Part shown: in pieces, positions 16,501 through 33,200 of the stretch
Numbering within the stretch: the stretch's first letter is position 1
Layout of the letters: every line of letters starts with the position of its first letter
NCBI RefSeq assembly: GCF_002571385.2
Contig: NW_019217822.1
Span: 429,331 to 493,330 of the forward strand
Reading direction: 5' to 3'
Origin: Stylophora pistillata
Lineage: Eukaryota
Length of the DNA stretch: 64,000 nucleotides
The notes under the pieces: generated by a model
Databases searched by the model: none
What the model was told of the DNA's origin: nothing
What the model saw: only the letters and a program-made list of their open reading frames with translations
Position numbers and translations under genes: made by a program

Positions 16501-19500
16501 AAAACTCCAGTAAAAGGAGCAAAAAGGGAAAGTTGACAAAAATGGTAGCATTTTGCAAGGACACTTGGACTGGCAAAGATAAAAAAAATAAATAAATAAA
16601 AAGCACATGAGAAACTAAACAGTCCAGTATGAGAGGTAAGATAAAATAGTAAGATTTTCAAAGTCGTAGTTTTACTGTCAGTATTGAACTTTCTCAGCTG
16701 GCGCTAAACAGCTGACATGTAGAAGTGAAGCAGTCAGGAACAAACACATGCGCGATATTCCTTACGGCTGCAAAAATGATAGAACTATGTGATTCATAAC
16801 TAGTCAGAACAACTTAAGCAAACCTTTCATCTCCCCTGAAGGTAACTGACAGAAAACTACATCACACATTTCTTTGGAAGATGAAGATGTCCGAGATCCA
16901 GTGAGTGTTGCCATCTTTTTGTCTACTAACCTTTGAAGAAGAAGAAAAAAAACATGAAACCTTCAAATAAGGAGGAGGGTTTGACCCATTCTAGCGCACA
17001 AATGATATACAAAGAAATTTCCCGAAATTGCAAACACTTCAACATGGAAGTCTCTTTAAGTAAGCAAATTGGTTACACGCCCTTGAGTCTAGATAACGCC
17101 AACTACCATAGGGAACAGCGTAGCTCCTTTAATGTCCTAACCCTAACCCAAACTTAATCACCAAGCTTACATGTCATTCACCAACCTGGGAAAAGCAGAA
17201 ATTGATCCTTTTCTAGCATCTTCAACCACACAGCCATTAAGTGCACAGTTAATTTGAACTGAGCTGTCACTGGGCAAGACTACGGTAACTACACTTTCCT
17301 CCACATGACATAAACAGAGCCTTGTGGCTGGATCGCAGACCGACGACTGTGAATCAAACGGGTCCTGCAGTTGGTAAAGTAAACATAACCACTGTAAAGC
17401 AATTTTCAAATGAGACTGAAACCCTGGACTGGATTGGTTTCATTTCGCCCTCTGTGCACAACTGTACTGACAACTTCCAGTAAAAATCAAACGGTTTACT
17501 AACCAAAGGCTTCTCATTGTTGTACAGAGTAAGACTAGCTCCAACGAGATCAAATGAAAACACCATCCTGTCCCACACAGTTTCCGCATTTTCCACGGGT
17601 ACATCAGGTTCTGTAAAGATAATGTTTCTGTATAAAACCGCTTCCAAGCAAGTTTCCTCAACGAAAAATCTCACGAGCTAAGTATCAAAATTATGCCCGT
17701 TGACAGAAAAACCTTTTTTTATGTTTTAAATTTTGCGCTTGCAATGGTTACTGACACTACTATTTTCTTTGTTCTGAACTTTTTCTGTTACTATCAACGT
17801 TTTTCTTCATTTTAATCACGTGGAAAAAAGACAATGCAAATAATATCACACCAGATGAAGTATTTGCTGTCTCAGACGGTTCACTATGTTCCTCTTGTTC
17901 CTTTGCCATGCTTTGGTCAAGTCTCGATTGGTCTGAAAGCAAAACAACGCAAAAAATAGAAGTTGCATTTGGTACGTCGTTTCTAACAAGACCACCGTCT
18001 GCTTTGACTTAACAGTCAAATTAATACATGACGTGTTCGTACCTTCCAGTACCACACTTTCAGCTTCTTCCAAATTTACTTGAAAAAGCGTGGTGAGAAC
18101 GTGGTAATCCTGTCGACCTAGATTCATCTGAAAATAAAGATAACAAATATAACAATAACGACACAAATAACTTACAAATTACAATTCAAACCAAGAAAGT
18201 GCATTGATAGAGGACAATGCAGCTGGCAGCAGTATAAAAATGACCATAGCCTTTGAATAACTGATAGTAGGTATCAATCAAAAATTCATCGAAAATATAA
18301 ATATATCTTTTGACTTCAACTGTCCTGAGTGTGGAACAAAGAGAAAAATCAAGTGACCAGTAAAAATTAAAAACTCAGCCTTCCGATTGCCAAAAGGCGT
18401 TTTCTACACCCAACTTTAGACTAAGAACGGTCCCTCCTTTTAAGTAAAAAAAAAAAAAAATCAAGGAAAAAACGAGGGTTAACCCTTTACCTCCCAGAAG
18501 CGAGTCACATGTAAATTCTCCATATAATATCCATGCGTCATCCAACAAATAGGTAATGAGAATGCTCAAACTTATCAGGTAGAAGTTGTTATCTTGCAAT
18601 TGATCAAACACCAAATTCCTGTCTCTAATTTACAACTAATATGTAGCAGCTAGAGGGGAGAAATAACAATGCGATCCTGGGAGTTTAAGGGGTTAGCGAA
18701 AATGCGCCATTCATAGTCATAAGGTCTTCTTCAGAAGGCAACATAAAGTTAAAACTGAACAGCCCAAAGCAGTTGGGATGATCGAATTTGAACAAAATTA
18801 AATATATTTCAAAATAGATTCTCTATCTTCTTTTTTTTTAGCTCAAAAGATACCAGTCTATAGTCCAAAGGCTGCGATTCAGAAAGGATATGACTACATC
18901 GCGAGACAAACAAGAAAAATACCTCGACAAAGTCCAGAGCAGCTGAGCAATCTATGATTGGGATTTCATTGCAAGAGGGCAATAGTGAACGCTTGATGTT
19001 CGCTTCTAGTTTTATTGGTTCAATGAGATTTCGCTTGATCATCGGAGAGGAACTTATATCCATCACACCTCTACGTAAAGAAGGATGGCAATTTCAGTAC
19101 ACTGTACAAGTAGCAAGGGTTTTATCGTTTGGTTCAAGATGTGATCACCTCGGACGTGGATTGGGACGTTTGCACTTGGTACTTCTTCATCGCCTGGACA
19201 AGACATATGAAATGTCGCGATCCACATCGGAAATGTCTACATCGTGAGACAGACGATGATATTTCATTACGATGAGTAACGTAAATTTTCATTTATATTA
19301 TATTAGTCTTCTCTGTACAAAGTTCATTTTTAAACACATTGAAGCTAAACGAGAAAACACCATATGCACTCTATCCACTAGTAAATCTCAAGCTGTTTCT
19401 CAGACAGAGCTGTACTTAAAGTCTTCTCATTAACACTCCATTTTTACTTTGAAGATCTTTAAATCATTAGCCAACATCATTACCATCTCACCTCGCTAGC

Positions 19501-30200: not shown

Positions 30201-33200
30201 TTGGTTTAAAATCAAACACGTGATTTCACATTTTATTTCAGACAAAAACTGCATGACACGAAGTTCAATTGCCACTTTACTTCATCCACTTTAAAATCGC
30301 CCAAACTCGTTGTTCATCTGTAAGAAGCTTCAAGAGCTGCAAAATTCACCTCAAAGTTTTTGGTCTTTTTGGCATTTTATCTTAGCCATTCAACTAAAAA
30401 GGACTGTATTTTTTAAAATAATTCTAACTCTAACAATCAAAAGGTACTTCGATAAAAGTGCGTCTTTACCCAAGAAAGTGTATTAAAACAGCTAGCCCTA
30501 AATTTACCTTTGAAAAAGACTCATGACAAATATCTGAAAACTTGCAATAGCTTCTTGTTTGGCTGTCAGTTTTAATGAGCTGAACCTCATTTCAATCAAC
30601 TGCTCAATTGACTGAAACTTTTCTTTGAACTCTGGGCCTGCCGTATCGGCCTGACACATCCAAAGGAAAAAAGTATACAATAATTAGGACATTCTTTTAC
30701 GAGCGTTACATATACGATTAACTAAGAGGAGTTTTACTTGAAGCAAGTTAAAGAACACCTCCGTCTCCTTTCTCCAAAAAGGTATTTAAGGTGACCTACA
30801 AACATGTTATAAAAATCATTCGAAAATGGTCTTCTATGGTGCATAAAGTTCGACTTTATCGTTGTCATTTTAAAAACCTCTGTAACCTTGCCGCTCATGT
30901 AAAAAAATCATTAATTAAAATGGAGAATGCGTGTTCTTATGGCCCCTAGTTCTTCAAACAGATCGCATTGAGAACGATTAAAAAATGGGTGATAAATTGT
31001 GATGTCACTATTAAGCGGCCAGGTTGCTCAGGACGACTCCAAATGACGGCGTCAAGTCTCAGAAGCCAATTTAGGGGAAGATCAGGTCACTCATTGGAAT
31101 CTAAACAAGTGGTCTGTGTCATAATTTCATAACAAATTTTTAACAACTGCAAAGAAGTTCCCATCACAAAAACGATGATGAACTTTAGAATTTACCTTGA
31201 CGTAATTGACGGTAATCCAGTCATCTGTGGCGGACGAAGTCAACACGCAAAGGTTGCTGCCATCAACGTCTGTATCCAGGAGAAAAATAATTGATATTTA
31301 CTTTAAGTTTATTGGGTCCGTGAAATTTTGATCCGTTATAAAAAGTTAAGTGTTAAGTCATATCTGAGTTAATACACCATGGACCCAGATTTACTGAGTG
31401 TATACGTCAGCAAAGGAAACAGAGAAAATCAGTTTTTTCACTGCAGATTTTGAACCATTTCGTTTGGTTAATTTTTAAAAACCTCTTTCTGAATTGCGAT
31501 GCATGGGTGATAGCCCGATCTGCGCTACGTCCTTCGTTAGCTATCTATCAACTCATATCCAACGTCTCCATGAAATAGTCGTTAAGTATATCGTTTTTTG
31601 TTTTTTTGTTTTTTGTTTTTGTTTTTTTTTTTTTTTATACAGTTCACTTTCCTGGAATAAAAAAGAACAAAAAGAAATAAACCAGCTCAAAGTCTCGTAC
31701 CTTTCCAGTTGTTATCAGTGAGCTGTATAAATCCAATTTTTATTTTGGCATGAAGGTCCCACGAATGAGCAACCAAATCTGTGCCAACATCTCTTATTTC
31801 CAGAGACAAATATGGATTACCAGCAGCTTCTTGTTCATCTACCTTGTCAACAGTGATAAGGAGCTGAAAAAGCCAAGCCGGAGTCAAATAAACTTCACAT
31901 AAAACTGTAAGGAATAAACAGCACAGATACTGACTAGTGCGCTTTTTGTTTTTGTTTGGTTTTTTCATTTTTTTCTTTTTTTTTTTTTCTTTTTTTTCTT
32001 TTTTCTTGCGATGCTTAGCGTTCTTAGCCAAATATCCACCCACGATAATCAACATCAAAGTACCTTTTAAAGTGTCAAAATCGAGTTATACACGTAAATA
32101 ATTGCAAAAAACCAAAAACTCTTTTCTTTTTTAACATCAATTTTCAACATTTACCTCTGTGGTGTTCAAATGGCACATTGGTCCAAAAATAAGAAACGAA
32201 AAAAAGGAATTAGCCTCCACGAATACCTTCTCAATAGTAAAATCTCCCGCTAATTTGATCTTGTCGACTTCATGCGCTTCAACGAGCAAAGTTTGGTCAT
32301 CTTCAGGCCTGAATGAATAAAATGTATATTCACTGCATATCAAGAAGAGAAAGATATCACCAGAACAGTGCGTCTTTCGATTGGATAAGGTCTGCAAACT
32401 ATAAAATTCTTTTAATTCTCCTTTTACCTTTCTCCCTCAATCTCTCCTTCTCTTTTTTTCTTTCACTCAGTGTAACACGCCACATCACGAAATTGGCCGA
32501 TTCTACCATTATGACTCATATGACCCAAGTCAAGTTTTTGGCAGAAATATGTAACTAAACATGTCACATGTCACACAAAGCTAAGAACGATTAGGATTTT
32601 AACCCTCACCCTTTCGTCATACCAACAACTCTTTCTCGTCTGTTTCCTCTGTTTAAATTTATCACATGCCCAATCACGTTTTATGATACAGAAGACGTTA
32701 AGGGAACAAAACTTTCCGGCCTTATCAAAATGAATTGCCCATTTCCGAATTACCCTTGCCCTCATATTTTCAAAACGAGTCCTGGTGCTCATCGTTTGAT
32801 ATGATTATAAGTTTTCATTCACATGCAAATTAAACGCATTTTCACAAAAATGGTTGAGCACCAGGCCTCGTTTTAAAAATGAGGCCAAGGGTAATTCGGA
32901 AATGGGCTAATGGAAACCGAATGACACACCTTTCGTGTGGAAGATACTCTTGTGCATCGTACCACTGAACATCTTCATCTAGCGAACATTAAAACAAGAC
33001 AATCAAAACTAAGCTCGCACGAATTTCACATGACCAATAATACAAGTACTCCACCAACCACATTATACAGAATTCAACTGAAATGATCAGTGTCCATTAC
33101 CTTCATTGCTATTAAAGCGGGTAGCCATGGCGTCTTTAAACAAAGCTTCGAGATCGTTCGCTTCCTCTAAAGAAAGAGTTGAGGAGCTGTGTCTCCATTC

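Follow-up and report, generated by a model that had tools for sequence, protein, structure and literature searches.

Organization of the locus

The 64,000-nt stretch of the Stylophora pistillata genome analysed here (assembly GCF_002571385.2, contig NW_019217822.1, positions 429,331 to 493,330), which we call the window and number from its first letter, is largely occupied by the minus-strand gene of a VPS13 lipid-bridge protein. In the middle of this gene a block of exons is present twice. The doubled unit corresponds to repeats 5 to 7 of the repeating beta-groove fold (RBG5-7 module), and its two blocks, copy A and copy B, were rebuilt from the sequence as 12 matching exons each within 18043..31863. 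The start codon is at 55374 and the gene continues for ~20 kb beyond the left end of the window. Spliced alignment to the Montipora orthologue gives about 114 exons and about 4,000-4,050 amino acids (aa) with no stop; the length is approximate because one exon expected between 5536 and 8533 is not placed. The features on which the argument rests are the following.

1..55374 within the window, minus strand: host gene, second paralog of the VPS13A/C-like type (spliced alignment to the Montipora orthologue)
32930..32978, minus: exon with an FFAT-like motif (two phenylalanines in an acidic tract) behind an acidic tract (gene model, motif match)
32227..32308, minus: exon preceding copy A, which ends in the module-opening strand (gene model, RNA joints)
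26180..31863, minus: copy A of the RBG5-7 module, 13 exons (exon build, RNA joints, alignment to copy B)
Copy A exons, first half, minus: 31701-31863, 31196-31269, 30508-30650, 30029-30111, 29551-29691, 29398-29449, 28643-28694
Copy A exons, second half, minus: 28165-28203, 27909-28040, 27718-27795, 27127-27335, 26868-27006, 26180-26252 (GC donor)
25829-25959, minus: junction (linker) exon, 131 nt (exon build, RNA joints)
18043..25163, minus: copy B of the RBG5-7 module, 12 exons (exon build, RNA joints, alignment to copy A)
Copy B exons, first half, minus: 25007-25163, 23676-23749, 23188-23330, 22580-22743, 22284-22335, 21977-22028
Copy B exons, second half, minus: 21334-21372, 20776-20913, 20207-20284, 19492-19721, 18923-19070, 18043-18127

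Exon sizes are 163, 74, 143, 83+141, 52, 52, 39, 132, 78, 209, 139 and 73 nt in copy A and 157, 74, 143, 164, 52, 52, 39, 138, 78, 230, 148 and 85 nt in copy B. Every size given in the original prediction, which described an exon-for-exon duplication from the sequence alone, is thus reproduced. Exons A1-A12 sum to 1378 nt and those of copy B to 1360 nt. The 1509 nt first given for copy A is correct with the linker exon included and not for A1-A12 alone; once this exon is counted, the repeat period in the window gene is 503 aa. Copy A, linker and copy B join into a single open frame with AG acceptors throughout, and their donors are GT with the sole exception of GC after A12. The intron that follows A12 (25960-26179) is thus of the GC-AG type and is seen in raw reads and in contigs; its counterpart in copy B is GT-AG.

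Over 463 aa, the proteins encoded by the two copies share 28% identity (E 2e-63); their local alignment score is 551, and none of 200 shuffles exceeded 67. In the unit alignment A and B agree in the position and phase of the entry intron and of each of the 11 internal introns. Copy A has one intron more than copy B, and two of the common positions are missing from the coral's canonical VPS13A/C gene (locus C210, see below). No similarity between the blocks is detected at the DNA level by blastn at E<0.1, and of 34 fourfold sites at which the amino acid is the same in both copies, 10 also have the same third base, which is about the chance level. Therefore, the duplication is old, as had been proposed from the dissimilar introns.

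The junction exon enters in phase 1, as does the exon after copy B, and exits in phase 0, as does the exon before copy A. It codes for a disordered loop, of low pLDDT (per-residue model confidence) in the model of an orthologue, and for the first strand of copy B. This exon is likely the breakpoint site. We infer that the breakpoint fell inside loop-coding exons, with intron sliding since then as a possible alternative.

Two further details lie within copy B. A 61-codon open frame at 23789-23971 is bypassed when B1 is joined to B2 and matches no Pfam family, and intron B9-B10 carries a 13-bp tandem array of 17.8 copies at 19773-20004.

Splicing of the two blocks in series

Seven RNA runs from four studies were mapped, and the joints and contigs reported here are taken from those listed. 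Raw-read depth over the exons is below ~3 in all three raw runs. Of the 15 introns between the upstream exon and B1, the joints cover 14. The passage from one block to the other is seen directly in raw reads at A11-A12 (5 reads), A12-linker (4) and linker-B1 (6, with 4 starts), and the same three joints occur in contigs from two or three runs of one study. Within copy B, 8 of the 11 internal introns are among the joints listed and B1-B2 is present as a loose end. None of the joints listed skips a block; complementary DNA lacking one block had been named in the original prediction as evidence against a longer protein. In run X4 no joint of the VPS13 gene is listed. Copies A and B are both exonic and follow each other in the spliced RNA, and the protein is lengthened by one RBG5-7 module, as had been proposed.

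The window gene is a second VPS13A/C-like paralog

There are four VPS13 loci in the coral genome: the window gene, C210, C138 and C432. The locus C210:208000-277600 is the coral's canonical VPS13A/C gene, with a single unit, about 90 exons and 3,100-3,200 aa. The locus C138:411059-446105 is VPS13B-like, which we take from its motifs and gene structure. C432:88197-156300 is VPS13D-like: it has a ricin-lectin match at E 1.5e-4, below the curated cut-off, and the start of RBG7 is matched twice. The existence of these two separate loci argues against the window gene being VPS13B or VPS13D.

Homologue searches retrieved 150 of 394, 120 of 462 and 120 of 466 matches. For the placement of the gene the repeated unit was removed and trees were built from the flanks only, with 67 of 82 rows (15 partial or fragmented ones were left out) and, in a second tree, 29 rows. 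Support is given as the Shimodaira-Hasegawa-like approximate likelihood-ratio test and approximate Bayes values (SH-aLRT/aBayes) on the best tree found. The flank trees divide animal A/C-like proteins into two clades, each with cnidarians and bilaterians. The canonical clade (SH-aLRT 99.9) contains C210, amphioxus, hemichordate, mollusc, spider, nematode and all 9 vertebrate rows of the 67-row tree. The second clade (SH-aLRT 99.6) contains the window gene, Montipora, Oculina, Nematostella, Dendronephthya, Hydractinia and 20 bilaterian invertebrates; a sponge protein is placed weakly with it (74.6). Amphioxus, Ptychodera and Haliotis are represented in both. Reciprocal tblastn agrees: the window locus favours Ptychodera paralog a (1480 vs 924 summed bits), and C210 favours amphioxus paralog b (1787 vs 934). 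Hence, the window gene is a second VPS13A/C-like paralog and the coral orthologue of VPS13A/C is C210, a point that the original prediction had missed.

Other placements are rejected on the flank tree by the approximately unbiased (AU) test or by the log-likelihood difference (delta lnL). The window gene as an orthologue of VPS13C, with the cnidarian long genes joined to VPS13C, costs a delta lnL of 881 and is rejected by AU; the second clade joined to VPS13C (547) or to VPS13A (518) is AU-rejected as well. The two coral paralogs as sisters are also rejected (delta lnL 302).

No vertebrate member of the second clade is found among the sampled proteins. With a second-clade query the top 26 matches are invertebrate or unnamed, and named vertebrate matches, which stand lower, are labelled VPS13C. 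This fits a loss of the second paralog in vertebrates, although it is not proof of it.

The closest relatives found are those of stony corals (Oculina, 77% identical; Desmophyllum, 81%), and the Oculina orthologue is 77% identical to each window copy. All four Pfam families, Chorein/VPS13_N, VPS13_M, VAB and VPS13_C, are above cut-off in the orthologues P0301, P0201 and P0205; the window gene model aligns to P0301 over its full length, and PF12624 matches the window exons C39:484603-484704 and C39:479084-479179 (contig numbering). Neither a UBA nor a ricin family is present in 8 second-clade proteins scanned with Pfam. In the penultimate repeat the window protein aligns gaplessly to the WWE-carrying segment of VPS13A/C. 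Pfam WWE itself matches neither the window exon nor any of 12 proteins, vertebrate ones among them, and the WWE-like reading of the insert is our interpretation of its motifs. Second-clade proteins also have downstream inserts of ~45-70 aa that are absent from canonical rows.

The FFAT-like motif is present in a single copy outside the doubled unit and sits where VPS13A/C have their FFAT loop, before RBG5. It is found in the window protein and in 4 of 4 other anthozoan orthologues, and not in Hydractinia. Seven bilaterian second-clade proteins (P0006, P0011, P0190, P0189, P0304, P0161 and P0197) have, ahead of the module, a loop with a conserved, serine-rich variant of the FFAT-like motif. This variant differs from the cnidarian form, and we presume it to be a possible phospho-FFAT.

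Origin of the duplication

Two units are present in 7 of 7 cnidarian second-clade proteins and one unit in 20 of 20 bilaterian ones. Two units are also present in 7 of 7 VPS13C proteins, and the proteins of lamprey, amphioxus, sponge and choanoflagellate have a single unit, as does C210. The units themselves were placed in a tree of 44 rows (LG+C20); the AU sets omit 16 of the 44 rows (LG+G4 test) or 14 (test without Hydractinia). Cnidarian A and B copies form one clade (96/95; bp-RELL, a resampling support, 0.947 without Hydractinia), next to which stand the single units of bilaterians (99/98). The two copies of VPS13C are likewise united (100/100), in a part of the tree that also holds VPS13A and lamprey. 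The pairing of A and B with the respective halves of VPS13C, which the original prediction had offered for checking, is absent; A and B group with each other. Of the two origins it had left open, ancestral or convergent, convergence is borne out and shared ancestry falls.

The A copies of the coral, Nematostella and an octocoral group together (90/85), and so do their B copies (97/94); therefore, the event predates the hexacoral-octocoral split. Coral and Nematostella copies are 43-50% identical. The duplication is independent of that in VPS13C and probably took place in the cnidarian stem.

Other expansions were seen on the way. Two unnamed VPS13 proteins, P0017 (ENA) and P0037 (Logan), give three tandem partial module matches with a period of ~350 aa, roughly RBG6-7, and score best against the canonical clade, which suggests another independent central expansion. 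The VPS13C of Bombina bombina (P0207, XP_053575277) is a 4,987-aa model with four units in which a long stretch is repeated; its source flags it as low quality and the four units may be an assembly artefact.

Limits and fold of the module

Repeat limits were set by split local alignment. In cnidarians and in VPS13C alike, the unit opens with the strand that follows the FFAT loop and closes with the helix that precedes the next disordered loop. The unit period is 505-509 aa in three anthozoan proteins, 506-516 aa in four VPS13C proteins and 478 aa in Hydractinia, and a Desmophyllum copy-B fragment is matched twice by human VPS13C, 514 aa apart. The doubled unit thus has the same limits as the VPS13C unit. 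In the available text of two earlier studies the RBG5-7 set is described as doubled independently in VPS13C and VPS13D (Levine 2022, PMC7613979; Kumar 2018, PMC6168267), and the former also describes its loss in nematode VPS13D.

The doubled region of the Oculina orthologue was modelled with AlphaFold (mean pLDDT 76.8). The model has six strand groups, each ended by a helix, so that the strand-helix pattern occurs twice; a count of RBG units in such a model had been proposed, and it agrees with the doubling. The best fold matches are BLTP1/LPD-3, Vps13-N and ATG2A (9cap, 6cbc, 8kbx; Z 13.9, root mean square deviation 13.8, 720 aligned). Human VPS13C (9yqp) is absent from both fold-search results, which is not informative. 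Both copies are predicted to hold the RBG fold in one continuous sheet.

Proposed mechanism of bridge extension

We suggest that the extra module would lengthen the lipid groove from 12 to 15 repeats, or by ~5 nm beyond the single-unit paralog. A single FFAT-like motif would anchor the protein at the endoplasmic reticulum (ER), an assignment made because the motif is present. The VAB, WWE-like and C-terminal modules may dock on the target organelle, and bulk lipid would then pass across a gap wider than that served by the single-unit paralog. Disordered loops flank RBG5-7, which could allow a clean duplication of the module, and the breakpoint would therefore fall in a loop.

The estimate follows from VPS13C. 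In the portions of Cai 2022 (PMC9303930) that are available, removal of 514 aa from VPS13C shortens the rod from 29 to 24 nm and narrows the ER-lysosome gap by ~5 nm, so that under overexpression rod length set gap width; rods may, however, sit obliquely at narrower contacts. A full bridge measures ~300 A by cryo-electron microscopy in the available part of PMC13430412. By analogy with these experiments, wider contact sites may be expected for the cnidarian protein.

Alternative explanations

The explanation that we consider well founded is a spliced, ancient tandem duplication of RBG5-7 in a second, invertebrate VPS13A/C-like paralog, independent of that in VPS13C, likely in the cnidarian stem and extending the groove from 12 to 15 repeats, by ~5 nm. 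A long form shared with vertebrate VPS13C and older than the cnidarian-bilaterian split would account for the same module, limits and period and for the name 'VPS13C-like' that some orthologues bear in databases. Nevertheless, the unit trees reject one shared duplication under two models (delta lnL 324 with LG+G4; 181, p-AU 1.9e-50, with the mixture model), and the flank trees agree. VPS13C copies are 51% identical to each other vs 22-24% to coral A and B, and lamprey, amphioxus and C210 have a single unit, so that this origin is hardly credible. Doubling of the second paralog before the split, with later loss of one copy in bilaterians, is better tolerated by the data: it is disfavoured only, with p-AU of 0.064 and 0.070 without Hydractinia, and the same topology gives 0.40 and 0.32 with it. 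There is also a precedent for loss of RBG5-7 in nematode VPS13D, according to the available text of PMC7613979. The support for the A+B clade and the single units of the sponge and choanoflagellate proteins speak against it, and we regard it as improbable. Somewhat less improbable, though still unlikely, are two separate doublings, one anthozoan and one hydrozoan, with the window's duplication restricted to anthozoans. The two Hydractinia copies join each other in the unit tree (87/74), their period is shorter and the protein has no FFAT match. However, these copies are long branches and their joining is flagged as such branches meeting, each prefers the corresponding anthozoan profile (Hydractinia A, 142 bits with the A profile vs 119; Hydractinia B, 137 with the B profile vs 124), and the AU test retains a single event (p-AU 0.42).

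As to what the longer form does, near-neutral fixation is possible but doubtful: RBG5-7 may duplicate readily and a longer rod be tolerated, with the contact served unchanged. The module was gained repeatedly (in VPS13C and VPS13D according to the available text of PMC7613979, in the window gene, and in the two unnamed proteins with three partial units) and was lost in worm VPS13D, and oblique rods at narrower contacts are allowed for in the part of Cai 2022 cited above. On the other side, neither copy has been lost from any of the 7 cnidarian proteins sampled, those of coral and Nematostella are 43-50% identical, and rod length did set gap width for overexpressed VPS13C. The original prediction had speculated on a link of the longer bridge to the algal symbiosome. 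Nematostella, Dendronephthya and Hydractinia also possess the doubled unit, and to our knowledge these animals have no algal symbionts; the symbiosome idea is therefore unsupported, although a later co-option is conceivable. The only paper found that combines VPS13, coral and symbiosome names Vps13d alone in its available text, and an adaptation to feed or service the symbiosome is very improbable. An error of assembly, or a pair of blocks of which each transcript uses only one, might be argued from the fact that no contig among those listed spans both. With only 28% identity between the blocks, unrelated introns, A11-A12-linker-B1 joints in raw reads and contigs and both blocks in orthologues of five other genera, we give this next to no weight.

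Several points weigh against the favoured explanation. Apart from the AU values for an older duplication and the long branches of Hydractinia, whose copies tested singly have no clear placement in the tree, the trees are rooted on one choanoflagellate, with neither a VPS13D nor a fungal outgroup. The fold model is of an orthologue and is built on a 22-row alignment with 17 VPS13C rows (pTM, predicted template modelling score, 0.65). In the RNA, 3 introns are absent from the joints listed and none of the contigs listed covers the two blocks entirely, and one downstream exon beside a transposon-like element is missing from the gene model.

Other features of the window

5639-8090: 2.45-kb element, located in the VPS13 gene, whose 431-bp inverted arms are 98.8% identical

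This element has a transposase-like frame at 6807-7580 on the minus strand (weak HTH_Tnp_4 match, E 0.011) and a cysteine-rich frame at 6249-6698 on the plus strand. Of the VPS13 exons that flank it, one ends in phase 1 and the next starts in phase 0. A search with a single query did not detect the exon expected between 5536 and 8533, which corresponds to a segment present in two other corals; the exon proposed there by the aligner falls within the element. An assembly gap of 619 bases (33463-34081) lies in the intron upstream of the FFAT exon and contains no model exon. A dispersed repeat, presumably a tRNA-derived short interspersed element by its look, has copies 88-96% identical with very high RNA depth at 24101-24480, 9822-10109, 49877-50139 and 34082-34151. 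Upstream of the VPS13 gene, minus-strand exons of a serine/threonine kinase occupy 57957-62747 (Pkinase, E 5e-27); we take their peptides to resemble RSK/RPS6KA.

Comparison with known relatives

Vertebrate VPS13C (PDB 9yqp; PMC6168267; PMC9303930) also has RBG5-7 duplicated in tandem, within the same limits and with a period of roughly 505-515 aa, and is alike in the single upstream FFAT loop, VAB, putative WWE-like insert and C-terminal domain. It differs in belonging to the other paralog clade and in its separate event, with copies 51% identical vs 28-31% in the cnidarian gene. The canonical VPS13A/C type (vertebrate VPS13A, fly Vps13 and yeast Vps13), with 12 RBG repeats in the available text of PMC7613979, shares the four Pfam families and the putative WWE-like insert, and 71 of 113 introns of the window gene are common to the coral's canonical gene. 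However, the window gene is one module longer, and C210 is the coral's own canonical member. VPS13D, with 15 RBG repeats and an older duplication of RBG5-7 in the same text, has the same module doubled, but has its own D-like locus at C432, and the 8 second-clade proteins scanned lack UBA and ricin. Bilaterian invertebrate proteins named 'VPS13A-like', of about 3,300-3,580 aa (Ptychodera XP_070568681, Antedon XP_071956749, Dermacentor XP_037577362), are orthologues of the window gene by the flank tree; their names are automatic and, unlike the cnidarian proteins, each of the 20 has a single unit.

The family, the fold, the module, the two earlier duplications and the lipid-bridge biochemistry are already known. 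We found no account in the literature of a second animal A/C paralog or of the cnidarian duplication, although the cluster map of Levine 2022 (>1,000 VPS13 proteins) may hold the group; neither is mentioned in the available text of PMC10683392, PMC12066543 and PMC10953354.

Implications

The results suggest that one VPS13 paralog of animals has been overlooked, and they bring the independent doublings of the RBG5-7 module to three. They also mean that the label 'VPS13C-like' on long invertebrate proteins does not imply orthology. We lean slightly to a broader view, in which early animals had five VPS13 genes, not four, and the second A/C-like paralog was lost in vertebrates and, apparently, in flies and nematodes. 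If this is true, the second paralog survives in cnidarians, molluscs, many arthropods, echinoderms, hemichordates and amphioxus, and would have gone unnoticed because of these losses. RBG5-7 would then be a reusable 5-nm spacer, doubled independently at least three times (in VPS13D, VPS13C and the cnidarian gene) and retuning contact width. Orthologues one module apart, long in cnidarians and short in bilaterians, together with a short canonical paralog in the same genome, make a natural test pair for this, and genetic tools exist in Nematostella and Hydractinia.

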